Assembly: GCF_030013205.1 (NCBI RefSeq)
Contig: NZ_CP122648.1
Strand: one strand, 5' to 3'
Length of the DNA stretch: 64,000 nt
Source of the DNA: Escherichia coli
GTDB taxonomy: Bacteria; Pseudomonadota; Gammaproteobacteria; Enterobacterales; Enterobacteriaceae
Below are positions 191 to 45,234 of this stretch, in pieces. A program made the position numbers and the translations under genes. Below the pieces are notes generated by a model that had not been told where the DNA came from, made no database searches, and saw only the letters and a program-made list of their open reading frames with translations. Every line of letters begins with the position of its first letter. The stretch's first letter is position 1.

Positions 191-865
191 ATGAAAGGAT
201 TATTTGCTTTACTCATTTCTTCTATGGTCCTTCCTGCACATGCCGGTATTGTTATCTACGGGACGCGTATTATTTACCCGGCAGAAAATAAAGAAGTGAT
301 GGTGCAGTTGATGAATCAGGGAAACCGTTCTTCGCTGCTGCAGGCGTGGATTGATGATGGCGATACGTCGTTACCACCAGAAAAAATTCAGGTTCCTTTC
401 ATGTTAACGCCACCAGTGGCAAAAATAGGGGCAAATTCCGGGCAGCAAGTAAAAATCAAAATTATGCCGAATAAACTGCCTACTAATAAAGAGAGCATTT
501 TTTATCTGAATGTTCTTGATATTCCACCAAATAGTCCAGAGCAAGAGGGCAAGAATGCACTGAAATTTGCAATGCAAAACAGAATCAAATTGTTTTACCG
601 GCCTGCGGGTATTGCGCCGGTAAATAAAGCGACATTTAAAAAGTTACTGGTAAATCGCAGTGGCAATGGATTGGTGATAAAAAATGACTCAGCAAATTGG
701 GTAACGATTTCGGATGTCAAAGCTAATAATGTCAAAGTCAATTATGAAACTATTATGATTGCCCCCTTAGAAAGTCAGAGTATTAATGTCAAAAGTAATA
801 ATGCGAATAACTGGCATCTGACCATTATCGATGACCATGGCAACTATATTAGTGACAAAATTTAA
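191..865 (+). CDS. yehC: Periplasmic fimbrial chaperone (PapD-like)
   Basis: 224 aa, signal peptide, PapD-like chaperone sequence; followed directly by usher gene. Confidence 0.9.
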   Translation: MKGLFALLISSMVLPAHAGIVIYGTRIIYPAENKEVMVQLMNQGNRSSLLQAWIDDGDTSLPPEKIQVPFMLTPPVAKIGANSGQQVKIKIMPNKLPTNKESIFYLNVLDIPPNSPEQEGKNALKFAMQNRIKLFYRPAGIAPVNKATFKKLLVNRSGNGLVIKNDSANWVTISDVKANNVKVNYETIMIAPLESQSINVKSNNANNWHLTIIDDHGNYISDKI

Positions 866-880
866 TTGCAGGAGCTGCCT

Positions 881-3361
881 ATGTTGAGAATGACCCCACT
901 TGCATCAGCAATCGTAGCGTTATTGCTCGGCATTGAAGCTTATGCAGCTGAAGAAACCTTTGATACCCATTTTATGATAGGTGGAATGAAAGACCAGCAG
1001 GTTGCAAATATTCGTCTTGATGATAATCAACCCTTGCCGGGGCAGTATGACATCGATATTTATGTCAATAAGCAATGGCGCGGGAAATATGAGATTATTG
1101 TTAAAGACAACCCGCAAGAAACATGTTTATCAAGGGAAATTATCAAGCGGTTAGGCGTTAATACCGATAACTTTGCCAGCGGTAAGCAATGTTTAACATT
1201 TGAGCAACTTGTTCAGGGTGGGAGCTATACCTGGGATATCGGAGTTTTTCGTCTCGATTTCAGTGTCCCGCAGGCGTGGGTGGAAGAACTGGAAAGTGGC
1301 TATGTTCCACCGGAAAACTGGGAACGGGGTATTAATGCGTTTTATACCTCTTATTATGTGAGTCAGTATTACAGCGACTATAAAGCGTCGGGTAATAGCA
1401 AGAGTACATATGTACGTTTTAACAGCGGGTTAAACTTACTGGGGTGGCAACTGCATTCTGATGCCAGTTTCAGTAAAACAAATAGCAATCCAGGGGTGTG
1501 GAAAAGCAATACCCTGTATCTGGAACGTGGATTTGCCCAACTTCTCGGCACGCTTCGCGTGGGTGATATGTACACATCAAGCGATATTTTTGATTCTGTT
1601 CGCTTCAGCGGTGTGCGGTTGTTTCGTGATATGCAGATGTTGCCTAACTCGAAACAAAATTTTACGCCACGGGTGCAGGGGATTGCTCAGAGTAACGCGC
1701 TGGTAACTATTGAACAGAATGGTTTTGTCGTTTATCAGAAAGAGGTTCCTCCTGGCCCGTTTGCGATTACAGATTTGCAGTTGGCCGGTGGTGGAGCAGA
1801 TCTTGATGTCAGCGTGAAAGAGGCGGACGGCTCGGTTACCACCTATCTGGTGCCTTATGCAGCAGTGCCGAATATGCTGCAACCCGGAGTGTCGAAATAT
1901 GATTTTGCGGCGGGTCGTAGCCATATTGAAGGGGCGAGCAAACAAAGTGATTTTGTCCAGGCGGGTTATCAGTATGGTTTTAATAACTTATTGACGCTGT
2001 ATGGCGGATCGATGGTCGCGAATAATTATTACGCGTTCACTTTGGGGACTAGCTGGAATACACGCATTGGTGCCATTTCCGTCGATGCCACGAAGTCGCA
2101 TAGTAAACAAGACAACGGCGATGTGTTTGACGGGCAAAGTTATCAAATTGCCTACAACAAATTTGTGAGCCAAACGTCGACGCGTTTTGGTCTGGCGGCC
2201 TGGCGTTATTCGTCGCGTGATTACCGGACATTTAACGATCACGTTTGGGCAAACAATAAAGATAATTATCGCCGTGATGAAAACGATATCTATGACATTG
2301 CCGATTATTACCAGAACGATTTTGGCCGTAAAAATAGCTTTTCTGCCAATATGAGCCAGTCATTGCCAGAAGGCTGGGGTTCTGTGTCCTTAAGTACGTT
2401 ATGGCGAGATTACTGGGGGCGTAGCGGCAGCAGTAAGGATTATCAGTTGAGTTATTCCAACAACCTGCGACGGATAAGCTATACCCTCGCGGCAAGCCAG
2501 GCTTATGACGAGAATCATCATGAAGAGAAACGTTTTAATATTTTTATATCGATTCCCTTTGATTGGGGTGATGACGTTACGACGCCTCGTCGGCAAATAT
2601 ATATGTCTAACTCAACGACGTTTGATGATCAGGGTTTTGCCTCAAATAATACGGGATTATCGGGAACCGTTGGAAACCGGGATCAATTTAACTATGGGGT
2701 CAACCTGAGTCATCAGCATCAGGGAAATGAAACAACAGCTGGAGCGAATTTAACCTGGAACGCGCCGGTGGCAACGGTGAATGGCAGTTATAGTCAGTCG
2801 AGTACTTATCGACAGGCTGGAGCCAGTGTTTCAGGGGGCATTGTCGCCTGGTCGGGTGGCGTTAATCTGGCGAACCGTCTTTCCGAAACGTTTGCAGTGA
2901 TGAATGCGCCAGGAATTAAAGATGCTTATGTCAATGGGCAAAAATATCGCACAACAAACCGTAATGGAGTGGTGGTATACGACGGAATGACACCTTATCG
3001 GGAAAATCACCTGATGCTGGATGTGTCGCAAAGCGATAGCGAAGCAGAATTGCGCGGTAACCGGAAAATTGCCGCACCTTATCGCGGCGCGGTTGTACTG
3101 GTTAATTTTGATACCGATCAGCGCAAGCCCTGGTTTATAAAAGCGTTAAGAACGGATGGGCAACCATTAACGTTTGGTTATGAAGTCAATGATATCCATG
3201 GTCATAATATTGGCGTTGTCGGCCAGGGAAGCCAGTTATTTATTCGCACCAATGAAGTTCCGCCATCGGTTAATGTAGCAATTGATAAGCAACAAGGACT
3301 TTCATGCACAATCACCTTCGGTAAAGAGATTGATGAAAGTAGAAATTATATTTGCCAGTAA
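881..3361 (+). CDS. yehB: Outer-membrane fimbrial usher
   Basis: ~826 aa usher-like protein; ATG at 881 preceded by AGGAG preferred over TTG at 866 used by ORF track. Confidence 0.9.
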   Translation: MLRMTPLASAIVALLLGIEAYAAEETFDTHFMIGGMKDQQVANIRLDDNQPLPGQYDIDIYVNKQWRGKYEIIVKDNPQETCLSREIIKRLGVNTDNFASGKQCLTFEQLVQGGSYTWDIGVFRLDFSVPQAWVEELESGYVPPENWERGINAFYTSYYVSQYYSDYKASGNSKSTYVRFNSGLNLLGWQLHSDASFSKTNSNPGVWKSNTLYLERGFAQLLGTLRVGDMYTSSDIFDSVRFSGVRLFRDMQMLPNSKQNFTPRVQGIAQSNALVTIEQNGFVVYQKEVPPGPFAITDLQLAGGGADLDVSVKEADGSVTTYLVPYAAVPNMLQPGVSKYDFAAGRSHIEGASKQSDFVQAGYQYGFNNLLTLYGGSMVANNYYAFTLGTSWNTRIGAISVDATKSHSKQDNGDVFDGQSYQIAYNKFVSQTSTRFGLAAWRYSSRDYRTFNDHVWANNKDNYRRDENDIYDIADYYQNDFGRKNSFSANMSQSLPEGWGSVSLSTLWRDYWGRSGSSKDYQLSYSNNLRRISYTLAASQAYDENHHEEKRFNIFISIPFDWGDDVTTPRRQIYMSNSTTFDDQGFASNNTGLSGTVGNRDQFNYGVNLSHQHQGNETTAGANLTWNAPVATVNGSYSQSSTYRQAGASVSGGIVAWSGGVNLANRLSETFAVMNAPGIKDAYVNGQKYRTTNRNGVVVYDGMTPYRENHLMLDVSQSDSEAELRGNRKIAAPYRGAVVLVNFDTDQRKPWFIKALRTDGQPLTFGYEVNDIHGHNIGVVGQGSQLFIRTNEVPPSVNVAIDKQQGLSCTITFGKEIDESRNYICQ

Positions 3362-6267: not shown

Positions 6268-6359
6268 TTTATTAACGCGATTGTAAAACTGCGGTTTTTA
6301 CTCGTTTACAACGCGTGCGCTGGACATTACCATCCTCCTCTGCGATTTATCATCGCAAT

Positions 6360-6437
6360 CAAACGACTCGGGGTGCCCTTCTGCGTGAAGGCTGAGAAAT
6401 ACCCGTATCACCTGATCTGGATAATGCCAGCGTAGGG
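6360..6437 (+). repeat. Left copy of 78-bp direct repeat: TPP-riboswitch aptamer segment without downstream expression platform (att-like)
   Basis: Identical base-for-base to 15250-15327; sequence diverges immediately on both sides. Confidence 0.85.
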
Positions 6438-6520
6438 GGCCAAAATAGTCTTGAAAATTATGTGGTTGTATCTCTTTTTGACCATAAATCATGCTGTTAA
6501 GGTACAAAAAGGGGTCGTTT

Positions 6521-7828
6521 ATGAGGTCAAGAACTCTCCCATACACATTTCAGCGAAACGGTAATTACTATCTACAAATCCGGCTTTCGGATGGTCGGAT
6601 ATACAAAAAATCACTTTTTACTGACAGTTATCGCGAAGCATCGGCGTTGATGATTGGCCTTACTCCGCACATTCCTTTCGTTAAATCACTCGCTACTCCG
6701 TTGCCGCAATTTAATAAGTTTGTTTCAAACTTGATCGCTTCGTCACGTAACGTAATGATTCCGTTGCCACTCCCTCAGCAATTGAACAATATTTCTAAAG
6801 AAGTTTTGCAGCTTCAACCACCAGCCAAACCGGAAAAGGTGCTAACACTTGCTGATGCGTGGGCTATGTACAAGGAGGAAAGAGGTCGAAATTGGACAAA
6901 ATCGATCTCAATGGCAAATGAGCGTTATATGGAGGTATTGCTTGTTGTCTTGGGAAAAGAAACAGACGTAACGGCAATCACCAAACAAGATATTAAGCGA
7001 GTAATGGAAACTGTCGAAAACTTACCAAAGCGTGTAGTGCAACCGTATAGGTCAATGACTATTCAGCAACTAATCGAATGTGATGATGTGCTGCCAGAGG
7101 ATTTAGTTGGTGCTGAGGCTGTACATAAGCACCTTAAAATCTACAAATCGTTATTCAAAACATTTCTGACTGAAAACAAAGATATTCTATCTAAGTCTCC
7201 GACTGATGGAATAGTAGCGGCACCATCCAAAGCTAGGTTTGGTGCATACAGTGCAGCAGAAATGAAAAAATTTGTAGGATGGGCACTAAAGCAGCCTGAT
7301 GGATGGCAGAAGTGGATCACTTTGTTGTTGGCGTACACAGGAGCCAGAAGAGGTGAGATTGCTAAACTGGAGAAGTCGCAGATCAAATTTGATGAAGATA
7401 GCCAGCGGCACTATCTTCTGATCGCGGAAAGAAGGCTGGGTAAAACTGAGAATGCTACAAGACAGGTAGTGATTCATCCCAAACTGATTGAGTGGGGGTT
7501 TCTGGATTTTGTTAACCGCCAATGGAAAGAGAAAATCTTTTCGGAAGTCTCAGGTCGAAATATGTCAAAGATAGGTAAAGTTCTTTCAGATGTTCGTGAT
7601 CAGCTTGATATTCCTTATCTTGATGATTATGGGCAGCGGCGCTTGGTGCATAGTTTCCGGCATACTATGATTTCTACTTGTTTAGCTGGTTGGGTGAGTA
7701 ATTTGGCGCATCTGCAACAGGTGGTAGGTCATGAGAAAAGCGGTTTAGGGATTACCAGACGCTATTTGCACTCTTTTCCTTTACGTTCAATTTGTTACGT
7801 GATTGATGGTTTGGACTGGTTAAATTGA
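6521..7828 (+). CDS. Tyrosine site-specific integrase (phage/P4-like integrase family)
   Basis: C-terminal catalytic motifs TGARRGE, HSFRHT (HxxR) and RRYLH (Tyr nucleophile); ATG 6521 with AGGGG RBS preferred over 6491. Confidence 0.85.
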   Translation: MRSRTLPYTFQRNGNYYLQIRLSDGRIYKKSLFTDSYREASALMIGLTPHIPFVKSLATPLPQFNKFVSNLIASSRNVMIPLPLPQQLNNISKEVLQLQPPAKPEKVLTLADAWAMYKEERGRNWTKSISMANERYMEVLLVVLGKETDVTAITKQDIKRVMETVENLPKRVVQPYRSMTIQQLIECDDVLPEDLVGAEAVHKHLKIYKSLFKTFLTENKDILSKSPTDGIVAAPSKARFGAYSAAEMKKFVGWALKQPDGWQKWITLLLAYTGARRGEIAKLEKSQIKFDEDSQRHYLLIAERRLGKTENATRQVVIHPKLIEWGFLDFVNRQWKEKIFSEVSGRNMSKIGKVLSDVRDQLDIPYLDDYGQRRLVHSFRHTMISTCLAGWVSNLAHLQQVVGHEKSGLGITRRYLHSFPLRSICYVIDGLDWLN

Positions 7829-7869
7829 TGTGAGCCTCGTGAGAAAGGGAATAAATAGAGAAAATCAAG

Positions 7870-7897
7870 TTGTTACCTCATTGGCAGGGGATATAAT
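7870..7897 (+). promoter_or_regulatory. Candidate sigma70 promoter for nuclease gene
   Basis: TTGTTA-16 bp-TATAAT, ~30 bp upstream of ATG 7928; followed by near-palindrome TGACCATATTGTCA (possible operator). Confidence 0.45.
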
Positions 7898-7927
7898 GAC
7901 CATATTGTCATCTTGAGGAACAAAAGT

Positions 7928-9499
7928 ATGGTTGCTCGTTCTAACCTTGTAAATTTAGATGCACTGATTAAGCGTGCTGATTTAGGTTTAAAGATCCAAG
8001 ATAACTCTTCATTTGAAACGCTAAACAGTATTCCTGCAAGAGAATTGAAATCAGGAAGTGGAATTGCTGCGCTTCTGAGAAAACCAGATTTCCAGCGTGA
8101 AACAAATCATTGGGGGCCTGAGCAGGTTGTATCGCTTCTCGAATGCTACATCAATGGTGATTTGATACCTTCCGTTATTCTTTGGCGGTCTTCAACCCAT
8201 CTTTTTGTGATCGATGGTGGTCATCGTTTAAGTGCGTTACGTGCTTGGGTTGAAGATGATTATGGCGACGGTCATATATCCCATCAACTTTTTGGGCATG
8301 ATATTCCTCGTGAACAACGCCGCGCTGCAGATAGAACGAGAAAGCTTGTGAAGGAGAGGGTCGGTAGCTGGGAATATTATCAGAAGTTGCTTGCCGATGA
8401 TGCTTCATTGACCGAGGAACAGCAGAGAAGAATCAGCGTATTAACATCTCGTGGAATCTCAGTCCAATGGGTAGTGGGTGATGTAGATAAGGCAGAAACT
8501 TCATTTTTTAACATCAATATGAAGGGAACTCCTCTTGATGCTATCGAAGAGATGCTTCTAAAAAATCGCAAGAAAAGTATTCCGATAGCAACCCGAGCAA
8601 TTATTCGTGCCGGTAGAGGTCATCGCTATTGGTCGGGGTTTGATCAGAGCATTGCCCAGCAACTTGAAGATAAATCTGCAAAGCTGCATCGTTTGCTGTT
8701 CGAACCTGAAGTTGATCGCCCTATTAAAACTCTTGATCTTCCATTAGGCGGTTCTAGGGGGGTCAGGACAGCGATCCAAGTTTTGAAAGATTTCTTACTG
8801 ATCACTGATTGCAACCAGAATGGTGTTTTGAAAAAAATCGAAGCCTACCCTGATGATGCGTCGGGTGCTGATACGTTAAGAATCCTTTCCAAAGCCACAT
8901 CATTAAGCAATAGAATTACAGGCAATGGCGATGGTAGCTTGGGGCTTCATCCAGCGATTTATTTTTATGGTCCGACTGGAATCCACTCAACGCCAATGTT
9001 TCTAGGAACTGTGCTACTGGTGGCAAAACAACTCTCTAACAATAATGGTCAATTCTTTAAAGACTTCACAACAATCAGATCTAGGCTTGAGAGAATAATG
9101 ATCGAATTTAAGGACTTGATCGCAATGATAGTACAAAAACCAGGTAGTAATGTCCGAGTGGCTCGCTACTGTGATTTTTTAAATGCGGTGATCAAATCAC
9201 TCAAGCAGGGAGAGAATATTGATGAGAGTAAGCTTATCGAGCTGGCCGAATTGGAGGGGAGAATACTCTCTGGAGATTTTAAGAGAACATCAGCAAAAAT
9301 CAGCGATGAACAAAAAAGTAAGGTGTTCATTGACGTGGCTCTGCGCAACGCTTTGAAATGTCCGATTTGCCAAGGTTACCTTGATACTGAAAAGTCAGTT
9401 TCTTATGATCATATCGTACGTGTCCGTGAGGGAGGAGATGGTAATTCTGACAATGTACAGTTGACACACCCTTACTGTAACCAGTCAGTGAAGTGTTAA
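7928..9499 (+). CDS. ParB-like (DUF262/DGQHR-type) N-terminal domain fused to C-terminal HNH endonuclease; candidate defence/type IV restriction-like nuclease
   Basis: N-terminal motifs PDFQRETNHW and VIDGGHRLSAL; C-terminal CPICQ…YDHIVRV…NSDNVQLTHPYCN (HNH with Cys ligands); GAGGAA RBS before ATG 7928. Confidence 0.6.
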   Translation: MVARSNLVNLDALIKRADLGLKIQDNSSFETLNSIPARELKSGSGIAALLRKPDFQRETNHWGPEQVVSLLECYINGDLIPSVILWRSSTHLFVIDGGHRLSALRAWVEDDYGDGHISHQLFGHDIPREQRRAADRTRKLVKERVGSWEYYQKLLADDASLTEEQQRRISVLTSRGISVQWVVGDVDKAETSFFNINMKGTPLDAIEEMLLKNRKKSIPIATRAIIRAGRGHRYWSGFDQSIAQQLEDKSAKLHRLLFEPEVDRPIKTLDLPLGGSRGVRTAIQVLKDFLLITDCNQNGVLKKIEAYPDDASGADTLRILSKATSLSNRITGNGDGSLGLHPAIYFYGPTGIHSTPMFLGTVLLVAKQLSNNNGQFFKDFTTIRSRLERIMIEFKDLIAMIVQKPGSNVRVARYCDFLNAVIKSLKQGENIDESKLIELAELEGRILSGDFKRTSAKISDEQKSKVFIDVALRNALKCPICQGYLDTEKSVSYDHIVRVREGGDGNSDNVQLTHPYCNQSVKC

Positions 9500-9887
9500 A
9501 ATCACGTTTCACTTTTCGTTGTCATTTGTATCGAACGTTTTTGAGAAAGGGCAGGATTGCGAGCGAGTTACCAGCGTAAACAGATAAATACTGTTTTCGT
9601 AAGCCCACTGTCGCCGCTTTCCGCTCTGCAATTTTTGCTTGTCGGGGGGCTAATTGTGGCTTTGCTTGCCATAACATTAAAAGTCAGTAATATACTGAAA
9701 ATTAATACAATACTTTTCATATATCCCATTGAATATTCAGTTCATTGCCAAATAGCAAGCGGAGCACTCTCTCTTTAACGTTGTAGTAACTTAGTTGAAC
9801 AATTTTATAATATAATTTGTCTAAGTTGGTTGATGTATCAAAGCCTTTTTCTGAAGAATGAATTGGCGTGATTACTCACGCCAGATT

Positions 9888-10235
9888 TTAAATTTCAGAA
9901 CATAGGCTAAGCGTATAGACAGCAGTTTGCCCATCATTGTTAGTCGGTCTCATAACGAAAACAGGCTGACTCCCATTATCAATGTATGTGACTGCAACCC
10001 CTCCATCAGGTGTGGCATACATTTTTGCGATGCTTTTTTGACCTATAAAATCAAGTCTCCAAGTCTTACCACCAAGATGTATTGTCATTTTTTTATCTTG
10101 TATATCAAAAGTTGAATCTACAGAAACTTTCTGACTTCCCGAGTCAATATGACCTTCCTGTATTGCTTTACAGGAAAAGGTTGTGGCGTGGCCCATCACT
10201 GGAATTAACAAAGCGGCAAATACTAGTTTTTTCAT
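9888..10235 (-). CDS. Small secreted/periplasmic hypothetical protein (115 aa)
   Basis: Internal ATG with GGGAG RBS; signal peptide MKKLVFAALLIPVMGHA; no family recognised. Confidence 0.5.
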   Translation of the reverse strand: MKKLVFAALLIPVMGHATTFSCKAIQEGHIDSGSQKVSVDSTFDIQDKKMTIHLGGKTWRLDFIGQKSIAKMYATPDGGVAVTYIDNGSQPVFVMRPTNNDGQTAVYTLSLCSEI

Positions 10236-10345
10236 TTGTCTCCCTTGATGTGTCAAATGGATGGTGATGCTAATAATACATGATTGATTCAAAATGTCAC
10301 GATTAGTGCGTGGTTAATTGGTGCGTCAAATTGCATCTTTGTGCC

Positions 10346-10810
10346 ATGCGAAAGAATCTGAGATACCTTTTTGGACAACGAGTAAAAGAGTTCCGTATAG
10401 CTATTGGCTTAAGCCAAGAGGCCTTTGCAGATCGGTGTGGTTTTGCTCGTAGTTATATGAGTCGAATTGAGCGTGGTTGCTCTAATGCATCTCTTGATGC
10501 AATTGAGGTTCTGGCTGACGCTTTGCGTATTGAGCCTTGGCAGTTACTAGCTTCTGATTCAAGGAAAACTGATGATCAGGAGGTACTTGTTCCTTATGCT
10601 GCAGATGGGTCGTGTTTTCATCCAGGATTGGCAAGTACTCGCGATGGTTCGTTTAGAGTAGGGGAAAAATCAGCCCAGAAACGTTTCAGTTCGTTCAATG
10701 ACGCTCTCGAATACCTTCGTGGAATGGAAACCGCGAAGTGGCGTAGGCCTAATGCTAGTGGTAATTGGGGAATTGTATCTGCGGTTAAATGGGATCGACT
10801 GAATCAATAA
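10346..10810 (+). CDS. XRE-family (Cro/CI-type) HTH transcriptional regulator with uncharacterised C-terminal domain
   Basis: HTH segment LSQEAFADRCGFARSYMSRIERG; start codon uncertain (GTG 10310 or ATG 10346). Confidence 0.55.
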   Translation: MRKNLRYLFGQRVKEFRIAIGLSQEAFADRCGFARSYMSRIERGCSNASLDAIEVLADALRIEPWQLLASDSRKTDDQEVLVPYAADGSCFHPGLASTRDGSFRVGEKSAQKRFSSFNDALEYLRGMETAKWRRPNASGNWGIVSAVKWDRLNQ

Positions 10811-10976
10811 GATATCAGTAATTTTCGGGCCACTCCACAAGGCAATAAGTGGCTTAGTGGTGATTATCGAAGGGGAATACAAGCGAGCACCTAGGCACCA
10901 TTGCAAGAACCGCTCAACGCTGAGATCAGCAAGCCCCGATTTCTGCCGACCGTCCCTGTCAAATATCAAGGAGGCA

Positions 10977-11516
10977 TTACGCCTCCTCTTCTTCCTTCTT
11001 AATTCGCTGTACCGTCGAAGGAGCAACATTAAAGATCTCGGCGGTTTTACGCACTGACACGCCATCAGAAAGGGCTTTCTTTATACCTTCTCGATCCACT
11101 GCCTTACCTTTACCACGCTTTCTAGGATTGACGGCTTGCGCTTCTCGTTTACGTTCTAACATCAGTTCACGTTCACACGTTGCCACTGCCGACAACATAG
11201 TAAGCATCATTTTTCCCATCGCGCTTGTAATGTCTGCAATGATCCCTTCTTTGTGAAAGCGAACAATTACACCACGATTATTAAGTTGTTCCACTAAGGC
11301 AAGAATGTCTAAGGTGTTACGCCCTAAACGATCAAGAGAGTGGACGTGTAAGGTGTCGCCTTCTCTCAGATAGGCTAAACACGCTTGTAAGCCTGGGCGG
11401 TTAGTGTCTTTACCAGACAGCTTATCTTCAAAGACTTTGTCGAGAGTTAGTCCTGCAAGCTGGCGATCAGTATTTTGATCTACAGTGCTCACACGCTTAT
11501 AGCCGATATTGCTCAT
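10977..11516 (-). CDS. Serine recombinase (resolvase/DNA invertase family)
   Basis: N-terminus MSNIGYKRVSTVDQNTDRQ (catalytic Ser motif), C-terminal HTH; ATG 11516 with AAGGGGA RBS. Confidence 0.8.
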   Translation of the reverse strand: MSNIGYKRVSTVDQNTDRQLAGLTLDKVFEDKLSGKDTNRPGLQACLAYLREGDTLHVHSLDRLGRNTLDILALVEQLNNRGVIVRFHKEGIIADITSAMGKMMLTMLSAVATCERELMLERKREAQAVNPRKRGKGKAVDREGIKKALSDGVSVRKTAEIFNVAPSTVQRIKKEEEEA

Positions 11517-11564
11517 AAAATCCCCTTGATGTATCGATTTGGCACCACTCCAATGCAAATGAGT

Positions 11565-11660
11565 GTGTTGTATTCATTTGGTCTGTTTCAAGCCTTATGG
11601 ATACGGAATATTACACGATTTAGCTGTATTCATTTGGTATGCCTAATGGATACGCAGGGG
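11565..11660. promoter_or_regulatory. res-like recombinase binding sites upstream of the serine recombinase gene
   Basis: Two similar subsites TGTATTCATTTGGT…ATGGATACG with internal imperfect dyad symmetry, directly upstream of recombinase start. Confidence 0.4.
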
Positions 11661-11769
11661 GATAGATTAAATGGTGTTCTGTTTATACAGGTTTATTTGT
11701 TAGATCAACAAGTTGGCATTTCTAAACAGATGTTTGAACGTTGCCAAATGCCTTGACAACACAAGAAAA

Positions 11770-12720
11770 TGGCTTGCTATGAACGCATTACACGAAATAA
11801 GGCTATAAAAACAAAATAAATTTTAAAATTTGCACAAAAACGAGAAAACTCGTTCGACAAATAATAGATTGGTTTTTAATCGACAATTTCTGACAATTTC
11901 TGATGGTGCTCTGTAAACCGCATTACACAAGGCTTTGCGAAAGTGATGTAAAAGTGAAGAAAGTTAACATTGCACTTTGAAGCCATTTTTCATTGGATTT
12001 TTTAGTAGGGAATTACACAGGGAATAGAGAGCATTATTCTATGATTTACACAGGGAATATAGGGGATTATGGCACACACATAGAAAGGCATTACACAGAG
12101 TGAGTGCTATGTGATGATTGGTAGTAACGGTAGGTCACTGTGAGCTACCCCCCACAGAATTCTGTTACCCCTATCAAGTCTAACAGGGGTTTATAAAGAA
12201 TAATAAACCGATGATACCCCTATCAATATTGATACCCCTATTAGCTTTGATATGACTACCCCTATCAAAACTGATACCCGATAAGAATAAGTTAATAAGA
12301 ATAATTAAATAATATTCTTTATATCTATATATATGATCTTTTTGCCTTCCGGCGTTAGCTTCACTCTCTGGCAAGCAGCCTTACTCCGCTATCTTTGGGC
12401 TTCGTGGCTGGCCCGTTCCGCTCACACCGAAAGCAAAGCGTTACTCTTCTTCGTGTAACTATCGTTGGCGGTAACGCCACACGAAGAAATACTATTGCGC
12501 TGTGCGCAGTAAGAGTAATCACCTAACCAATCACCTGATTGCTTACGTGTTAACTCTCTCTAACTCTTAATTACCCTCCTACATTTAATAACTCTATTAT
12601 TCTCTGTAGTTGTGTAATTACTCGAAGAGAGAGCGGCTAAAGCTCAATTACACTCTGCTTTCCTCGTGTAATTTCACTAAGCCTCAATACAATTTCACTT
12701 CCTACATTCTGTAGTCGTGT
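11770..12720. repeat. Iteron-like repeat cluster in 1.9 kb ORF-free AT-rich region (putative origin or regulatory hub)
   Basis: Five direct copies of (C)ATTACACAG at ~11777-12100, four copies of TACCCCTATCAA at ~12163-12270, reverse-orientation GTGTAAT copies at ~12451-12715. Confidence 0.5.
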
Positions 12721-13503
12721 AATAGTTTTCGGTGGGGAAAAGCCAGAGGCGACACCGAAAGAAAATTCTGATCTTATTAATCTTATCTATCTTAGTTAAT
12801 CTTCTTACTTACTTTATCTACTTTATTATTAATAATAGCTTTATAAGCTCTCTGTGTAGCTCTCTGACGCAAGAAACAGCATTCAGGAAGGGAATCACCT
12901 TAGAAAAGTGTTCTTTGCGTCATAATGTGTTTTATGAAGGATTCAGAGGTGTTTCATAACACAAGGTATAGAGGATATTTTAGTTAATTAAAAATAAGGG
13001 GGCTAAATGCTTCTCTAACAGCATTAAGCAGGGTAGAGAATGGAAATGCATTGCCTACGTATATATAAACTCACTACAAGGCTTTACAGAGCGTTTTATA
13101 AAGTAACTAATCTAAGAACTCTCTGTTTTATATCTATCATCATCTTTCCATCATCTAACAAATACAAAATAAGCCCCTTAAATAAGCCTCTGGCGAGCTA
13201 AACAGCCATTACATAAGGGAATGTATTTCTTTTATCAAAACTTCGTTAGAACGCGTTTTAGAGCGTTTTATACAATAAGGAAGAATAGGACCGTCCGCAA
13301 GAGCACGAATTGCTAAGAAAGAATGTAAACGCATGAAAAATATCAGATTTTTTATGAAAATATATTGACAAATGTTTCTTTATATGTAATAATAGGTATT
13401 AGAGAGACAGAAAAACATTCTTCTCTAAATAATCAAAATCAATGCACTTTGAAGCCGTCAGGCTTGCAAGGTGTTTTTCTTTTAACTGAATAAGGAGTTT
13501 TTT

Positions 13504-13692
13504 ATGAAATGGTTTACACCGGAACACGTCGTAGAGGCATTTAAAAAAGGTGAGCTAACACGACATCAAGTAGTAATGAATCGTAATATGGCAAGGAGTC
13601 GAGGTTATCCAGAGCGTGAAAAATGTTTCGATGCAGCACTAAAAATTATTGATAAATTAAGAAAAAATGAAAAAGGATCTGAAACAGAGTAA
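13504..13692 (+). CDS. Hypothetical small protein (62 aa)
   Basis: AAGGAG RBS upstream of ATG; no family recognised. Confidence 0.35.
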   Translation: MKWFTPEHVVEAFKKGELTRHQVVMNRNMARSRGYPEREKCFDAALKIIDKLRKNEKGSETE

Positions 13693-13711
13693 AGAAGAGA
13701 AGGAGAAAACT

Positions 13712-13882
13712 ATGAGCGAAACTACAGAAAAGAAAAGACAACCACGCACTTGCTTTCATATTCCTGATGAAGTATTTCAGGTGTTGTTTAAAGAAGCCAG
13801 AAGTAAACGTATCACTGTTACAGATTACATTCTTGATATGTTGAAAAGAGAGGCTGAAACACTCTCAAATAAAAGCAAGTGA
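13712..13882 (+). CDS. Small ribbon-helix-helix (CopG/Arc-like) DNA-binding protein
   Basis: 56 aa; AAGGAGAAAAC RBS; N-terminal RTCFHIPDEVFQVLFKEA…ITVTDYILDML pattern typical of RHH. Confidence 0.45.
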   Translation: MSETTEKKRQPRTCFHIPDEVFQVLFKEARSKRITVTDYILDMLKREAETLSNKSK

Positions 13883-13936
13883 TTTTTATCACCATAGTAG
13901 CGCCGTAGAGCGTGATTACATCAAGGAGCTTTTTTA

Positions 13937-14599
13937 ATGATTAAACATACAAAACCTTTCTTAGGAATAGATTATGACTTACTAGCAATCACTTCCCTAG
14001 TGATTAACGGCAAAACAAAAGAAGTAAAACTACATCATAAGATCATTTATTCTTATTTGTTAAGTTTATCTGGCACATATCAAAAGGTAACACCATCTTT
14101 GAAAGGTATTGGTGAGCGGTTAGGAGTAGGTACAGATCAGACGGTACGCCGTCATATCAAAGATCTTGTTTCTTTTGGATGGTTGAAGATTGAGGAAAGG
14201 GCAGGTAGCACAAATGCTTATATTGTCCTTCCTTATGAACAAGAAGCCCAGACACAACAAGAAGCTACCGTTAAAGCTGTTCAGGAACAGCTTCCCCCTA
14301 CGGAAGATAATAAAGAGTTTTCTTTTGATGTTCTTGATGATTGGGATGCGCCTTTACCTTGGGAAATGGAAGAAACGCCATCTGATGAAAAGGTAGCTAA
14401 TGATAATGAGGAGGATGTGTTAGAGAATTTTGCCTCTCTTATCATCCAGGAGAAACACACAAGAACAGGAGGGGCATCATTTATAGAATTTGCAACATCG
14501 TTAGCCTGTAAGCACAGGATAAAGCTACCAAATGGTATTGAGGCATATTTTGCTAAGAAACATCCCAAAGTATATGAAGACTTTGATATTCCATTTTAA
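13937..14599 (+). CDS. HTH (winged-helix-like) protein with acidic linker; possible iteron-binding replication or regulatory protein
   Basis: 220 aa; AAGGAG RBS; HTH-like segment LKGIGERLGVGTDQTVRRHIKDLVSFGWL; sits beside iteron region. Confidence 0.45.
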   Translation: MIKHTKPFLGIDYDLLAITSLVINGKTKEVKLHHKIIYSYLLSLSGTYQKVTPSLKGIGERLGVGTDQTVRRHIKDLVSFGWLKIEERAGSTNAYIVLPYEQEAQTQQEATVKAVQEQLPPTEDNKEFSFDVLDDWDAPLPWEMEETPSDEKVANDNEEDVLENFASLIIQEKHTRTGGASFIEFATSLACKHRIKLPNGIEAYFAKKHPKVYEDFDIPF

Positions 14600-14794
14600 T
14601 AAGGAGGGTTATGATTCAATATTTAGTAAAAAATAAAGTAGAATTCATCTATTCCACTCTCTAAAAATCTATCTGTGTAATATAAAATGAAAACATTATG
14701 GTATTAGCTATGTATTGGTTATTGTTCTTTCTGGCCTTAGAAACATATGCAAGTAAGTCTGGAAAACGAAAGTAATATATTGATGATTTGTTTG

Positions 14795-15052
14795 TTATAA
14801 CTTCGTGGTGTCAAGTCCAGCAGTTTTGAGTCGCTCGGTAAGATTTCTCATTTTGCTGAACTCTGTACCAAAGCTGGCTTTAAGTCCTACACCTTCGCAA
14901 AACTCTTTTGCCGTGACGTTTTTCAGATGGTCAACATATTTGGTCATCTGGAGGTGCATTTCCATCGTTTGGCTATTTCGTGATGCGCTGCTAATGGCTT
15001 GCTTAATGTTCTCGTAGATCTGGGTTCTGTCATTGTTTATCCCACCTATCAA
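14795..15052 (-). CDS. Hypothetical protein (weak call; no in-frame ATG at ORF start)
   Basis: 85-aa ORF begins at TTG; first in-frame ATG would give 56 aa; no family recognised. Confidence 0.25.
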   Translation of the reverse strand: MIGGINNDRTQIYENIKQAISSASRNSQTMEMHLQMTKYVDHLKNVTAKEFCEGVGLKASFGTEFSKMRNLTERLKTAGLDTTKL

Positions 15053-15249
15053 ATTTAGAAAAATAATATTAATTAGCTAATTAATATAATCAATGGTTTT
15101 CACCATCTGAATGATAGCCGTTAATTGTTTCTTTTTCATTCCTTCTATGGGGTACAAAATGGGGTACACAGAGAAGAAGCAATTAATGGAGGCGAGCTTG
15201 CATCTGCAAGCCACTTCCCCTAAGCTGGCACAAAATATAGAGATTCAAC

Positions 15250-15327
15250 CAAACGACTCGGGGTGCCCTTCTGCGTGAAGGCTGAGAAATACCCGTATCA
15301 CCTGATCTGGATAATGCCAGCGTAGGG
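15250..15327 (+). repeat. Right copy of 78-bp direct repeat (part of intact thiM riboswitch)
   Basis: Identical to 6360-6437. Confidence 0.85.
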
Positions 15328-15379
15328 AAGTCACGGACCACCAGGTCATTGCTTCTTCACGTTATGGCAGGAGCAAACT
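15250..15379 (+). promoter_or_regulatory. thiM TPP (THI-box) riboswitch: aptamer plus expression platform
   Basis: Sequence CGACUCGGGGUGCCCUUCUGCGUGAAGGCUGAGAAAUACCCGUAUCACCUGAUCUGGAUAAUGCCAGCGUAGGGAAGUC… recognised as thiM riboswitch; directly precedes thiM start. Confidence 0.9.
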
Positions 15380-16168
15380 ATGCAAGTCGACCTGCTGAGT
15401 TCCGCGCAATCTGCGCACGCGTTACACCTTTTTCACCAACATTCCCCTCTTGTGCATTGCATGACCAATGATGTGGTGCAAACTTTTACTGCCAATACCT
15501 TACTGGCGCTCGGTGCATCGCCAGCGATGGTTATCGAAACCGAAGAAGCCAGTCAGTTTGCGGCTATCGCCAGTGCGTTGCTGATTAACGTTGGCACACT
15601 GACGCAGCCACGCGCACAGGCGATGCGTGCCGCCGTTGAACAGGCAAAACGCTCTCAAACACCCTGGACGCTTGATCCAGTAGCGGTTGGTGCACTCGAC
15701 TATCGCCGCCGTTTTTGTCTGGAACTTCTGTCTCATAAGCCAACCGCCATACGTGGTAATGCTTCGGAAATCATGGCATTAGCTGGCATTGCTAATGGCG
15801 GACGGGGAGTGGATACCACTGACGCCGCAGCTAATGCGATACCCGCTGCACAAACACTGGCACGGGAAACTGGCGCAATCGTCGTGGTCACAGGCGAGGT
15901 GGATTATGTTACCGATGGCCATTGCACCGTTGGCATTCACGGTGGCGATCCGCTAATGACCAAAGTGGTAGGAACTGGCTGTGCATTATCGGCGGTTGTC
16001 GCTGCCTGTTGTGCGCTACCAGGCGATATGCTGGAAAATGTCGCATCTGCCTGTCACTGGATGAAACAAGCCGGAGAACGCGCAGTCGCCAGTAGCGAGG
16101 GGCCAGGCAGTTTTGTTCCACATTTCCTTGATGCGCTCTGGCAATTGACGCAGGAGGTGCAAGCGTGA
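15380..16168 (+). CDS. thiM: Hydroxyethylthiazole kinase
   Basis: 262 aa, recognised ThiM sequence; riboswitch upstream. Confidence 0.95.
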
Positions 16169-16965
16169 AACGAATTAACGCTCTGACGATTGCCGGTACT
16201 GATCCGAGTGGTGGTGCGGGGATTCAGGCCGATCTTAAAACCTTCTCGGCACTTGGCGCTTATGGTTGCTCAGTTATTACTGCACTGGTGGCGCAAAATA
16301 CCCGTGGTGTACAGTCGGTGTATCGCATTGAGCCTGATTTTGTCGCCGCCCAGCTCGATTCGGTGTTCAGCGATGTGCGAATCGACACCACTAAAATCGG
16401 TATGTTGGCGGAAACCGATATTGTTGAAGCGGTGGCAGAACGGTTGCAACGTTATCAGATCCAAAACGTGGTACTCGACACCGTTATGCTGGCAAAAAGC
16501 GGCGACCCGCTGCTTTCACCTTCGGCGGTTGCTACGCTGCGCAGTCGATTATTGCCACAGGTTTCATTAATAACGCCAAACTTGCCCGAAGCTGCTGCCT
16601 TGCTCGACGCGCCACACGCGCGCACCGAACAGGAAATGCTGGAACAAGGGCGATCGCTGTTGGCGATGGGCTGTGGCGCAGTGCTAATGAAAGGTGGTCA
16701 TCTGGATGATGAGCAAAGCCCTGACTGGCTGTTTACTCGTGAGGGGGAACAACGATTTACTGCACCGCGCATTATGACCCAAAACACCCACGGCACTGGT
16801 TGTACGCTCTCTGCGGCGTTGGCTGCACTACGCCCGCGCCATACAAACTGGGCTGACACCGTACAGGAGGCAAAAAGCTGGCTTTCATCGGCGTTAGCCC
16901 AGGCCGACACGCTGGAAGTTGGTCACGGTATTGGTCCGGTTCACCACTTCCACGCCTGGTGGTGA
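16165..16965 (+). CDS. thiD: Hydroxymethylpyrimidine/phosphomethylpyrimidine kinase
   Basis: 266 aa; GTG start overlapping thiM stop (translational coupling). Confidence 0.95.
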
Positions 16966-31174: not shown

Positions 31175-31261
31175 AAAAAATAAGCCCGTGTAAGGGAGAT
31201 TACACAGGCTAAGGAGGTGGTTCCTGGTACAGCTAGCATTTTATGGGTTATGTTTTTCAGC
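31175..31261 (-). ncRNA. cyaR: CyaR (RyeE) Hfq-dependent sRNA
   Basis: Minus-strand sequence GCUGAAAAACAUAACCCAUAAAAUGCUAGCUGUACCAGGAACCACCUCCUUAGCCUGUGUAAUCUCCCUUACACGGGCUUAUUUUUU matches CyaR including terminator hairpin. Confidence 0.85.
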
Positions 31262-31345
31262 GAAACGGATGATAACCTTAATAAATGCAGCTGTATGTGA
31301 TCGGTTTCTAAGAATTTTCCATCCGGGAAAAATAATCGAAATTAA

Positions 31346-44577: not shown

Positions 44578-44717
44578 AAACGGGAAAGCCCCTCCCGAGG
44601 AAGGGGCCATAAATAAGGAAAGGGTCATGATGAAGCTACTCATCATCGTGGTGCTCTTAGTCATTAGCTGGCCAGCTTACTAAGACTACCAGGGCGGGGG
44701 AAACCCCGCTCTACCCT
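44578..44717 (-). ncRNA. sibB: Sib antisense sRNA (antitoxin) over ibs unit 1; boundaries approximate
   Basis: Minus-strand TTGACA-17-TACTTT promoter downstream of ibs stop; hairpin plus U-rich tract upstream of ibs start. Confidence 0.5.
44627..44683 (+). CDS. ibsB: Type I toxin Ibs (18 aa, MMKLLIIVVLLVISWPAY)
   Basis: Exact small hydrophobic ORF with tandem ATG. Confidence 0.8.
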   Translation: MMKLLIIVVLLVISWPAY

Positions 44718-44905
44718 CACTCCTGAAAGTATGCCTTCACGATAAGATTGTCAATCTGCAGGCTTTGCAGTCTGCGATCCTGCCAGCAAATATTCTTTGC
44801 GAGACGTTACGCAATAATCACACTGGAAACTATTTTATCCGCAAGTCAGCGATAGACTGCATTCAGGGCGAAAGGAGGTAAGCCGACGATTTCAGCGGGA
44901 CGCTG

Positions 44906-45045: not shown

Positions 45046-45234
45046 CACTCCTGAAATTATGCCTTCACGATAAGATTGTCAATCTGCAGGCTTTGCAGTC
45101 TGCGATCCCGCCAGCAAATATTCTTTGCGAGTCGTTACGCAATAATCACAGAGGAAACTATTTTGTTCACGCGTTAGCGATAGACTGCATTCAGGGCGAA
45201 AGGAGGTAAGCCGACGATTTCAGCGGGACGCTGA

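Follow-up and report, generated by a model that had tools for sequence, protein, structure and literature searches.

The thiamine pyrophosphate (TPP) aptamer of the thiM riboswitch in Escherichia coli is very probably the attachment site (attB) of a site-specific integrative element, which would rebuild the riboswitch from its own DNA. We analyzed a window of 64,000 nucleotides (contig NZ_CP122648.1) in which one such element is inserted. Sequence comparisons indicate that a whole clade of enterobacterial integrases uses the thiM riboswitch as a landing site, for which we found no description in the literature searched. In the mechanism that we propose, attP would be tripartite, consisting of a P arm that bears GGTACA arm-type integrase sites and promoter-like sequence, a complete copy of the aptamer from the 5' strand of P1 to the 3' strand of P4, and a P' arm with further GGTACA sites that extends to the integrase start codon. 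Strands would be exchanged where the shared block ends on its 3' side, most likely at CGTAGGG (the pyrophosphate-sensor bulge and the 3' strand of P4), and the universally conserved P5 hairpin CTGGATAATGCCAG would be a core-type binding site. After integration, the promoter and aptamer of the host would lie upstream of the integrase, in attL. The promoter and aptamer of the element would be joined in attR to thiMD's own P1 3' strand and expression platform, and therefore thiamine regulation would be preserved. Exchangeable anti-phage cargo, here a GmrSD-like type IV restriction enzyme, would be carried next to the integrase.

A preliminary description of this locus had noted a perfect 78-bp duplication of the TPP aptamer, and both observations hold. 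The 78 bp at 6360-6437 recur with 100% identity at 15250-15327, with an estimated chance of approximately 1e-38 for such a repeat in 64 kb. The repeat reaches 82 bp (6356-6437 and 15246-15327) with a single mismatch, T at 6359 versus C at 15249. Because C is also found at the position equivalent to 6359 in K-12 and in other strains with the same island, we consider the attP/attB identity to be 82 bp. Both copies exceeded the gathering score of Rfam family RF00059 (TPP; 54.3 bits), with 71.2 bits for the right copy (15249-15345) and 61.9 bits for the left copy (6359-6454), as did the copies at both ends of related islands. Also as described earlier, the right copy leads into the thiM leader and then thiM (ATG at 15380), and the left copy departs after CGTAGGG, with the integrase ATG (RefSeq start, 6521) 83 nt further on. 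The AT-rich interior was likewise found, with a G+C content of 33-48% in the island versus approximately 47-57% in the flanks. Which flank is ancestral had been left open and is now settled: DNA to the left of 6356 and to the right of 15327 is ancestral, and the 8.8 kb from 6438 to 15245 are element DNA. The ancestral part on the right begins with the P1 3' strand and the thiM expression platform (15328-15379), followed by thiM (15380-16168, + strand) and thiD (16165-16965).

The integrase (6521-7828, + strand; 435 aa, WP_021293394.1) matched phrog_1 and PF00589 (4e-6), in agreement with its earlier designation as a tyrosine integrase. Its catalytic residues R276, K308, H377, R380, H404, and Y415 were invariant across 12 relatives, down to 34% identity. 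A search of other genomes gave relatives of this integrase in 27 species-representative genomes as well as in E. coli, Klebsiella, and Cronobacter loci. In every testable relative, down to approximately 37% identity, a TPP aptamer ended 55-90 nt upstream of the integrase start. Integrases 78-82% identical from E. coli, Klebsiella, and Cronobacter were all located behind a TPP aptamer, with differing genes in the left flank, and those at 54, 46, 44, 39, and 37% identity were likewise placed. Among the species-representative loci (integrase-length match, at least 54% identity), the aptamer ended approximately 70-90 nt upstream in 27 of 27, and a second copy followed by the thiM leader was found 3.6-11 kb downstream in 10. 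The TPP-targeting integrases, including that of the window, formed one clade in a neighbor-joining (NJ) tree, with sister-clade integrases located at the rnpB 3' end or at a yciO-rluB hairpin. The sister clades targeting the rnpB 3' end were represented in Shewanella, Methylophaga, Marinomonas, Microbulbifer, Limnobaculum, Siccibacter, and Rahnella. Their integrases are homologous (30-42% identity), with approximately 70-90 nt between the end of the RNA and the integrase start, as in the thiM clade, and their islands have a similar size (7.7-10.8 kb). Unlike the thiM element, rnpB islands have the classical polarity, with a 16-31 bp duplication of the rnpB 3' end; no riboswitch is present and no promoter needs to be replaced.

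The element carries the entire aptamer except the P1 3' strand, together with a conserved promoter-like sequence, and its arms contain repeated motifs. The P' arm (6438-6520, + strand) has a GGTACA site at 6501-6506, just upstream of the Shine-Dalgarno sequence and start codon of the integrase, and relatives have a second GGTACA overlapping that start codon. This motif, predicted to be an arm-type site, occurred once or twice per P' arm and was kept in 13 of the 14 P' arms listed, with none in locus L038. The P arm (15041-15245, + strand) has two putative GGGGTACA arm-type sites at 15149-15156 and 15161-15168. The closest type-1 P arms had between one and three GGTACA copies (with a 12-nt spacing if several), the more diverged ones had none, and other subfamilies had their own repeats at the same place in the arms. 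The P arm also contains an inverted repeat (GCTTGC-ATCT-GCAAGC, 15196-15211) and a candidate replacement promoter for thiM, with TTGCAT (15198-15203) and TAAGCT (15221-15226) separated by 17 nt. In all type-1 P arms, both the sequence and the spacing of the motif TTGCnn-17-TA(A/C)(G/T)CT were kept. This candidate was missed by a consensus promoter scan, with approximately 3/6 matches per hexamer, and its conservation could instead reflect binding of an integrase accessory protein. A consensus scan identified a candidate native thiM promoter, TTTACA-17-TACCAT (6305-6333, + strand; 9/12 matches), which is present in the K-12 empty site and is now upstream of the attL aptamer and integrase rather than thiM. 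The O157-type remnant of the element lacks this native promoter, yet has kept the P arm, the riboswitch, and thiM. Since the nearest gene upstream of the riboswitch (encoding an HTH_73 protein) is divergent, the element must supply a promoter, and the promoter of the switch was probably also replaced by element DNA.

The position of the aptamer in front of the integrase raises the question of whether it is mainly for the element's own use. The integrase mRNA would then begin with a promoter and a TPP aptamer, the latter being the host copy when integrated and the element copy in the attP or tandem state. The level of thiamine pyrophosphate in the cell would set integrase synthesis and, through it, integration and excision, and restoration of thiM would be a by-product. 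If true, this would represent a riboswitch-controlled recombinase coupling integration and excision to the thiamine status of the cell, and a mobile element with a riboswitch as both landing pad and sensor. The constant spacing throughout the clade fits this idea. However, the rnpB-targeting relatives share it without any riboswitch, and the spacing therefore reflects attP geometry. Several subfamilies have attL copies that still reach the full-length Rfam model, but attL copies do not conserve the P1 3' strand, type b and c nhmmer matches end at CGTAG, and the attL copy of locus L018 has a mutated P5 loop, as expected of a copy free to decay. The P' arm of the window can also fold into a hairpin, with CUCUUUUUG pairing with CAAAAAGGGG over the integrase Shine-Dalgarno sequence, and both halves are kept in type-a P' arms. 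Against a regulatory role, such folds were no better than those of shuffled sequence (z-scores of -0.2 to -0.9), and the conserved motifs coincide with the GGTACA arm-type sites, which explains their conservation. We thus regard an aptamer kept mainly for the element's own use as unlikely.

To return to a landing site restored by the element, K-12 JM109 and nearly all of 5,426 complete E. coli genomes carried the segment in single copy, as an alignment to island-free strains had been expected to reveal. The left flank of these empty sites was the attL left flank and their right flank was the attR right flank. Together with the clade-wide linkage between integrase and aptamer, this bears out the idea of the riboswitch as attB. 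The whole island was found in 37 independent complete E. coli genomes, and nearly all others had a single-copy site of approximately 1,010 bp. The P arm adjoined a riboswitch in 456 of the 5,426 genomes (approximately 8%), including EDL933, and extra aptamer copies amounted to 276 in total, with at most three per genome. The island could date from an old insertion that is now immobile, or could be an ancestral segment that recombination between the repeats removed from most lineages, with no current activity. Such an origin would agree with the decayed remnants that are fixed in whole lineages such as O157:H7. It would also agree with our searches of IMG/VR, where no free attP or excised circle was found, and of plasmid and phage records, none of which contained the island; a P-O-P' junction was present on two metagenome contigs, both linear fragments and possibly tandem arrays. 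On the other hand, the islands were 99.7-100% identical in strains from pigs, humans, chickens, dogs, monkeys, and soil. Differing cargo was found on the same backbone at the same site, and the architecture recurred, between differing flanking genes, in more than 25 species. Tandem P-O-P' junctions were present in many species, and in E. coli TB06052 a new element was located inside a riboswitch that a remnant had rebuilt. Moreover, the integrase has an undisrupted ORF and retains every catalytic residue. An immobile island is thus very unlikely, and excision may still occur.

The polarity of the exchange determines which aptamer copy came from the element. In a comparison of 13 distinct element-borne aptamers, P2, P4, and P5 were kept, with P4 and P5 invariant, and four P3 pairs were changed on both sides. 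The Klebsiella locus L009 has a thiM-proximal (attR) copy with a foreign, compensatory P3 stem, and the host P3 is common to its attL copy and 10 of 10 empty K. pneumoniae sites. The rebuilding of a host regulatory RNA from element sequence, as put forward in the preliminary description, can be read directly from this locus. Because the two copies are identical in most loci, the polarity is drawn mainly from this one Klebsiella genome and from logic. According to it, the attL copy of the window (6356-6437, + strand; P1 5' strand through P4 3' strand) would be host-derived and is severed from the thiM expression platform, and the 5' part of the copy at 15246-15327 (+ strand) would be element DNA by origin. 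This attR copy would be the working thiM riboswitch aptamer; apart from the mismatch given above, it is identical to the host copy in this strain. Between P1 and the start codon its sequence does not differ from that of the K-12 thiM riboswitch, and we therefore assume that it binds TPP and controls thiM.

Alternatively, the crossover could lie where the shared block begins on its 5' side, near GACTCGGGG, with a host-derived thiM-proximal aptamer and the element copy in attL. The identical copies of most loci cannot discriminate between the two, and in Klebsiella the left edge of identity is indeed the start of P1. Nevertheless, in L009 the foreign P3 is in attR and not in attL, and the empty Klebsiella sites are all of the attL type. 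The left edge of identity varies among hosts, whereas the right edge is always located within GCGTAG(G)(G)(AAG) in all subfamilies, fixed to approximately 5 nt. Furthermore, in subfamilies with integrases of 67-72% identity, the P' arm repeats the P5 hairpin in inverted orientation, with a spacer of 5-7 nt at the center and a score reached by 0-3 of 300 shuffles in most such loci. In types b and c this palindromic core is centered on the right edge of identity, and in the rnpB relatives the exchange maps equally far from the integrase. An exchange at the 5' end therefore appears highly improbable. No palindromic core was found in the window's own P' arm subfamily, nor on the B' side of attB, so the core position for the window's element is deduced from homology and the identity edge. 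The proposed core at attL (6417-6437, + strand) would consist of the P5 hairpin (6417-6430) and a 7-bp overlap, CGTAGGG (6431-6437). In types b and c, identity with attB stops after CGTAG, which would leave two mismatches in a palindrome-centered overlap. The crossover is probably at CGTAGGG, beside the P5 hairpin. Finally, nothing beyond the existence of the repeat speaks for an artefact of assembly or for a target-site duplication by a transposon, and both can be dismissed: the same structure was found in the 37 independent complete genomes with analogues in many species and other genera, 75-82 bp far exceeds a transposase target duplication, and a tyrosine integrase with arm-type sites is present instead of a transposase and terminal inverted repeats.

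The cargo gene of the island (7928-9499, + strand) encodes a protein with an N-terminal GmrSD_N domain (DUF262, PF03235; 1e-11, residues 50-213). Its C-terminus is of the HNH type (PF01844), with no match to DUF1524 (GmrSD_C), and PADLOC gave only a weak NsnA match; for these reasons we named it GmrSD-like. Relatives have HNH+AIPR or AAA_15/21 proteins at this position. Next are genes for a small protein of 115 aa with a signal-peptide-like N-terminus (9888-10235, - strand; phrog_35183), an Xre/C-protein-like helix-turn-helix regulator (10346-10810, + strand), and a small serine recombinase of the DNA invertase/resolvase type (10977-11516, - strand; phrog_125, 5e-56). The latter belongs to the conserved backbone and is also present in relatives. 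A gene-free stretch of 2 kb (11517-13503) contains iteron- or operator-like repeats. The motif ATTACACR is found there five times in forward (11610-12097) and three times in reverse orientation (12611-12723), representing 8 of 11 matches in the window; 11 matches were reached by 0 of 100 shuffles. Repeats of 28 nt (12010 and 12043) and 23 nt (12215 and 12257) were also identified, and no Rfam family matched the stretch, which is probably a replication origin or a regulatory region. It is followed by two small backbone ORFs of 62 and 56 aa (13504-13882, + strand) with no match in family searches, and by a gene for a replication-initiator-like HTH protein of 220 aa (13937-14599, + strand; HTH_36). 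This protein matched the replication initiation families phrog_270, phrog_428, and phrog_391 (1e-9 to 1e-10), and the 5' part of its gene is 94.7% identical to DNA of phage muut. The HTH_73 protein (81 aa; 14795-15040, - strand) is encoded next to attR, transcribed away from it, and is kept at the right end of the E. coli, Klebsiella, and O157-type remnant elements, making it a candidate regulator or recombination directionality factor. Family searches recognized no excisionase, relaxase, or packaging gene in the island, and no relaxase or T4SS family matched its nine proteins.

Islands and prophages in tRNA and tmRNA genes also have a tyrosine integrase with arm- and core-type sites, and their attB lies in structured, conserved RNA-coding sequence with the dyad symmetry of a hairpin. 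An attP block identical to the target restores it, the integrase gene is located at the junction, and tandem arrays and decayed remnants occur. Williams reportedly distinguished, in 2002, sublocation classes of integration into such genes. The thiM element is similar in its junctional integrase, target-identical attP block, hairpin target, tandem arrays, and remnants. The likeness to tRNA 3'-end islands drawn in the preliminary description is thus correct in principle but not in polarity, since the thiM element duplicates the RNA's 5' part and must also provide a promoter. Unlike in these islands, the target is a cis-regulatory riboswitch aptamer rather than a stand-alone RNA gene. The thiM element restores a 5' portion (75-82 bp, nearly the whole aptamer) plus promoter, whereas tRNA islands restore a short 3' end. 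Its integrase is behind the displaced host copy, whereas that of a tRNA island is behind the functional one. The polarity is therefore the mirror image of that of tRNA, tmRNA, and rnpB islands, in which the 3' end of the target is rebuilt. The dusA-specific integrases are a family devoted to a single conserved site, located where a host transcription unit begins (Farrugia et al., 2015, PMC4482086). In this comparison of target sites, dusA and thiM elements are alike in that the 5' end of the target must be replaced, although dusA is protein-coding sequence and the thiM target a non-coding, ligand-sensing RNA.

Islands at rcnR-thiM, including that of E. coli 789, are found as RM_type_IV in a supplementary table of Hochhauser et al. 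(2023, PMC10121019), where the locus is not counted as a hotspot and its MGE type is given as "None." E. coli 789 carries the same island as the window, and the riboswitch target and att sites are not described in that study. The integrase-only defence islands of the same study, which also covers sRNA-gene hotspots of the E. coli pan-genome, resemble the thiM element, being small, with an integrase and defence cargo and without obvious transfer genes. No capsid, terminase, primase, or AlpA-type gene was found in the window's island with PHROGs, NCBIfam, and Pfam, which of such a gene set recognized only the integrase, HTH proteins, and a Rep-like protein, and the island therefore falls outside the gene-content definition of PICI and cfPICI satellites. 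The gene-free region, small ORFs, and Rep-like gene are approximately 87-95% identical to part of a 12-kb tRNA-Gly element encoding a major capsid protein and a baseplate protein, with approximately 95% identity for the gene-free stretch. Since this backbone is common to capsid-encoding, satellite-like elements, the island would probably depend for its mobilization on a helper phage or some other element and not move by itself. One thiM-targeting relative carried an SU10-type capsid gene.

The 78-bp repeat first noticed at the ends of the island is perfect, positions 6360-6437 and 15250-15327 being identical, and it extends to 82 bp with one mismatch (T6359 versus C15249). Since C stands on both sides in K-12 and in other carriers of the same island, the 82 bp are common to element and chromosome. 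The T at 6359, in the attL copy, is private to this ETEC lineage, C being the base there in other carriers. Both copies are TPP riboswitch aptamers scoring above the Rfam gathering score of 54.3 bits, with 71.2 bits for the right copy (15249-15345) and 61.9 bits for the left one (6359-6454). The right copy runs on through the thiM expression platform to thiM (ATG at 15380), and the left copy departs after CGTAGGG, with the integrase starting 83 nt further on, at 6521. The interior is AT-rich, with a G+C content of 33-48% compared with about 47-57% outside. When K-12 was aligned with both junctions, its left flank matched the sequence left of attL and its right flank the sequence right of attR. 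Therefore, 6438-15245 is the insert, which settles the question of the ancestral flank left open in the preliminary description. The predicted single-copy empty site was found in nearly all other complete E. coli genomes, where the flanks lie approximately 1,010 bp apart. An assembly artefact and a transposon with target-site duplication were both rejected as sources of the repeat; the duplication is real, and its reading as a riboswitch serving as attB is right. The genome of E. coli ETEC1748 (NZ_CP122719) has a sequence identical to the window, and its RefSeq annotation lists two 'TPP riboswitch' features and leaves the island itself unannotated.

The whole island was present between rcnR and thiM in 37 of the 5,426 complete E. 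coli genomes, at 99.7-100% identity, in strains from pigs, humans, chickens, dogs and a monkey, among other hosts, and also from soil. The 82-bp segment occurred 5,700 times in 5,424 genomes (at most three per genome), and integrase-family DNA was found in 221. The P arm, the element sequence that precedes the thiM-proximal aptamer (15041-15245), adjoins a riboswitch in 456 of the 5,426 genomes (~8%), the O157:H7 lineage among them. That the region upstream of thiM has been rewritten by the element in about 8% of E. coli genomes is a new finding.

A search for the integrase in other genomes, as suggested in the preliminary description, revealed a TPP aptamer upstream throughout the thiM-targeting relatives in many species. 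Integrases with 78-82% identity are common in E. coli, Klebsiella, Cronobacter, Enterobacter and Citrobacter, and the aptamer always stands before the integrase (E. coli loci L004-L006, K. pneumoniae L007-L009, Cronobacter L010). The genes on the left differ, namely rcnR in E. coli, a usp gene in K. pneumoniae and T6SS-related genes in Cronobacter. The Klebsiella islands close with a second aptamer followed by thiM, their 75-bp repeat carrying the Klebsiella aptamer sequence. We also surveyed one genome per species for integrase-length matches with at least 54% identity, and an aptamer was located ~70-90 nt upstream of the integrase in all 27 loci obtained. In ten of these, a second aptamer lay 3.6-11 kb downstream and was followed by GGGAAGTC, the thiM leader. 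The genera included Lelliottia, Erwinia, Enterobacter, Citrobacter, Silvania, Atlantibacter, Cedecea, Rahnella, Pluralibacter, Klebsiella, Winslowiella, Pantoea, Mangrovibacter, Franconibacter, Pseudenterobacter and Trabulsiella. A full TPP aptamer ending 55-85 nt before the integrase was still present in cluster representatives with 54, 46, 44, 39 and 37% identity. One of these distant elements carries a gene for an SU10-type capsid protein, and therefore true prophages use the thiM site too. The target of a 35% relative (L017) was left unjudged as its contig begins too near the integrase. A 6.5-kb contig labelled 'MAG: Flavobacterium psychrophilum' (L022) has a thiM aptamer of the enterobacterial type and an integrase with 77% identity, and is most likely a mis-binned enterobacterial contig. 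In Lelliottia sp. WAP21 (L018, 9840-9929), the P5 loop of the attL aptamer is mutated (CTGGGGGATGCCAG) and the aptamer scores lower, as expected of a displaced copy free to decay.

The duplicated block is the whole aptamer minus the 3' strand of helix P1. When attL copies were compared with native leaders, the right edge of identity was constant within ~5 nt in all subfamilies (GCGTAG/G/G/AAG), and the left edge was variable, at CAACCAAACGACTC in E. coli and TGACTC in Klebsiella. The clearest case for polarity is a single Klebsiella locus, L009, whose attL copy has the P3 helix CCCTTC-TTCGTT-GAAGG also seen in ten empty K. pneumoniae sites. The copy before thiM has CCCCATC-ACT-GATGGG instead, a different stem that still pairs and that Enterobacter and Citrobacter also have beside this type of P arm. 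The element is therefore the source of the 5' part of the functional riboswitch, with the exchange 3' of P3, in keeping with the early proposal that the host regulatory RNA is rebuilt from element sequence. Among 13 distinct element-borne aptamers, P4 and P5 were invariant and P3 varied, with compensatory changes in four pairs. The rnpB and tRNA islands have the mirror image of this polarity, because a cis-acting leader must remain joined to its downstream gene.

In subfamilies with 67-72% identity, the P' arm between the attL aptamer and the integrase contains TGGATAATGCCAG-CGTAGTC-CTGGCGATTATCCA or a sequence close to it, in which the P5 hairpin is repeated in inverted orientation about a spacer of 5-7 nt. 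In most such loci, only 0-3 of 300 shuffled sequences scored as high, and this arrangement is typical of a tyrosine-recombinase core. The overlap would then lie at CGTAG(GG), which corresponds to the pyrophosphate-sensor bulge and the 3' strand of P4 if the helices are assigned from leader folding. In the P' arm of the window (6438-6520), a palindromic core was not significant when compared with shuffled sequences, and therefore we infer the crossover position for this element. Relatives have a GGCC-N-GGCC hairpin that shows a compensatory change; the element of the window lacks it.

The P arms of this element and its closest relatives contain one to three GGTACA motifs ~85-120 nt upstream of the aptamer, spaced by 12 nt where several occur. 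The more diverged P arms of this kind (type 1) among those compared have none. The candidate arm-type sites of the window are GGGGTACA at 15149 and 15161. One or two GGTACA motifs were also present in 13 of 14 P' arms compared (none in L038), the last overlapping the integrase start in relatives. The corresponding position in other subfamilies is occupied by direct repeats of different sequence (GGTGATA three times, AGGTTAAAA twice). A second and unrelated P-arm type, GATTAACG-N-CGTTAATCGCAAGC or GATTAACG-N-CGTTAATCGCAAGCTTTTGATTTTG, adjoins the aptamer in several genera, on the attR side in L024, L026, L033, L039 and L040 and left of the integrase in L010 and L013. The site is therefore used by two element families with different P arms, which combine in mixed tandem arrays.

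Insertion has also changed what stands before thiMD. The candidate native thiM promoter (TTTACA-17-TACCAT, 6305-6333) now points at the integrase, and thiMD is preceded by the P arm, where the closest gene is divergent. Transcription of thiMD must therefore start in the 205-bp P arm or read through from far upstream. All type-1 P arms conserve TTGCnn-17 nt-TA(A/C)(G/T)CT (15198-15226 in the window), and its distance from the aptamer is roughly that of the candidate native promoter. A sigma-70 promoter scan of the plus strand of the P arm gave nothing above threshold. Hence, this motif is a candidate replacement promoter, weak by consensus and put forward on its conservation. A sigma-54 reading of the P-arm CTGGCAC-N5 was rejected by eye, as there is no TTGC -12 element. 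In O157:H7-type strains, including EDL933, a 2.2-kb remnant of the island lies between rcnR and thiM (860-3140 in locus L003; 11964-14237 in L109). Missing from it are the integrase, the left copy of the aptamer and the region of the native promoter, whereas the HTH_73 gene, P arm and riboswitch are retained and thiM is intact. The remnant offers natural support for a start of thiMD transcription that would lie in the P arm. It also has two small genes (annotated 'outer membrane protein' and 'hypothetical') missing from the island of the window, and the rcnR stop region of these strains differs from that of K-12 (TGA versus TAA).

The full-text literature searched did not describe the TPP/thiM riboswitch as an attachment site; subscription journals or island databases such as TIGER or Islander may already list it as 'intergenic'. 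In Hochhauser et al. (2023; PMC10121019), 'rcnR-thiM' islands appear only in a supplementary table, not as a hotspot, with MGE type 'None' and defence type RM_type_IV; E. coli 789, in that entry, carries the island of the window. Three other sources were rejected as prior descriptions: PMC5487053 deals with another island, between thiM and mrp, PMC12884075 makes no mention of riboswitches, and a bioRxiv paper on oral phages reports an insertion in a yebC-like gene merely upstream of a thiC riboswitch. The element is an RNA-gene-targeting integrative element, and what is new is the riboswitch target, the reversed polarity with delivery of an aptamer, and the broad clade. A promoter is probably delivered along with the aptamer. 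Riboswitch aptamers thus join tRNA, tmRNA, sRNA and protein-coding genes as attachment sites of tyrosine integrases, and a deep integrase clade across the Enterobacterales is dedicated to one. As the element must supply a working ligand-binding aptamer and a promoter, mobile DNA overwrites both a cis-regulatory RNA of the host and its transcriptional input. The regulation of thiamine salvage in strains with element DNA at thiM may differ from that of K-12. These loci also represent a natural experiment in riboswitch modularity, with one expression platform joined to aptamers of differing P3 and to differing promoters. Furthermore, the ~30-bp core (P4/P5) is nearly invariant across the Enterobacterales, and these integrases could become broad-host landing-pad tools.

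Tandem arrays were common: in many loci, the sequence to the left of the 'attL' aptamer is a P arm belonging to a further element. E. coli TB06052 has an O157-type remnant and, between it and thiM, a complete element whose cargo differs and which inserted into a riboswitch already rebuilt earlier. A pattern scan of IMG/VR yielded no free attP, a metagenome scan for attP gave two linear contigs without terminal overlap, and plasmid and phage collections contained only small fragments of the island. With no free circular form found in these collections, current excision is something we infer. The integrase may also be under the control of the aptamer, which always stands before it. However, P1 is not conserved in attL, the rnpB relatives show the same integrase spacing, and the leader folds no better than shuffled sequence, although the minimum-free-energy folds of attL and attR were uninformative (Z-scores near zero, with the ligand-bound aptamer fold not recovered). 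The present evidence leans against such regulation.

More distant integrases (30-42% identity) sit 70-90 nt downstream of a full-length RNase P RNA gene (rnpB) in Shewanella, Methylophaga, Microbulbifer, Marinomonas, an Alteromonadaceae bacterium, Limnobaculum, Siccibacter and Rahnella. In these loci (L046-L048, L056-L058, L060, L061, L063), the integrase lies at ~10001 and rnpB ends at ~9910-9930. The islands are 7.7-10.8 kb long, and the duplication is limited to 16-31 bp at the 3' end of rnpB. No description of rnpB as attB was found in the literature searched. An intermediate clade with integrases of ~560 aa includes one thiM case (L014), the others being in the yciO-rluB intergenic region (L045, L051, L052, L054, L055). 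Their target is a short hairpin-like conserved sequence, GACGCCTGTGAAGGCG, ~60-110 nt upstream of the integrase ORF, which is not covered by any Rfam family. Two of the loci have a direct repeat of 16-18 bp at a distance of ~10 kb. In a rough NJ tree, the TPP-targeting integrases formed one clade beside the rnpB and yciO-rluB groups. The family overall targets short structured sequences, and riboswitch specificity is one branch of it. With sister clades at the rnpB 3' end and the yciO-rluB hairpin, it is therefore a tractable family for the study of integrase switching among structured-RNA targets.

The tyrosine integrase of the island (6521-7828, plus strand; PF00589) has R276, K308, H377, R380, H404 and Y415, all invariant among relatives. 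It is followed by a GmrSD-like cargo gene for a GmrSD_N + HNH protein (7928-9499, plus), to which PADLOC gave no confident defence-system assignment. Next are genes for a small protein with a signal-peptide-like N-terminus (9888-10235, minus), an Xre/C-protein-like regulator (10346-10810, plus) and a serine invertase/resolvase (10977-11516, minus). A gene-free stretch of 2 kb (11517-13503) precedes two small ORFs (13504-13882, plus), a gene for a replication-initiator-like HTH protein (13937-14599, plus) and the HTH_73 gene, which reads away from attR (14795-15040, minus). No relaxase, capsid or terminase genes were found among the island genes. Among the relatives compared, the right-hand backbone is kept while the cargo beside the integrase differs, being GmrSD-like in the window and HNH + AIPR or AAA_15/21 with a partner elsewhere. 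The thiM site is thus a recurrent and previously unclassified home of anti-phage cargo, with GmrSD-like, AIPR-containing and AAA_15/21-type systems.

Of the 11 ATTACACR occurrences of the window, 8 fall in the gene-free stretch, as convergent arrays of five forward and then three reverse copies. The stretch also has a 28-nt repeat (12010/12043) and a 23-nt TACCCCTATCAA-type repeat (12215/12257), and it matched no Rfam family. Its counterpart in a capsid-encoding tRNA-Gly element of E. coli AR_0119 is ~95% identical. From this region through the Rep-like gene, the island is ~87-95% identical to part of that 12-kb element, whose products include a major capsid protein, a baseplate protein and an integrase of unrelated sequence. 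The backbone is therefore one of a modular, satellite-like group, whose members swap integrase modules. The start of the Rep-like gene and the DNA just upstream (13877-14305) are 94.7% identical over 429 bp to Escherichia phage muut (MN850573, 146 kb), and this shared DNA may be a sign that the phage acts as a helper or competitor. In other parts of the window, Rfam matched three tandem Sib antitoxin RNAs (44612-45417), CyaR (31178-31263) and a JUMPstart element (60454-60492), all ordinary features of E. coli.
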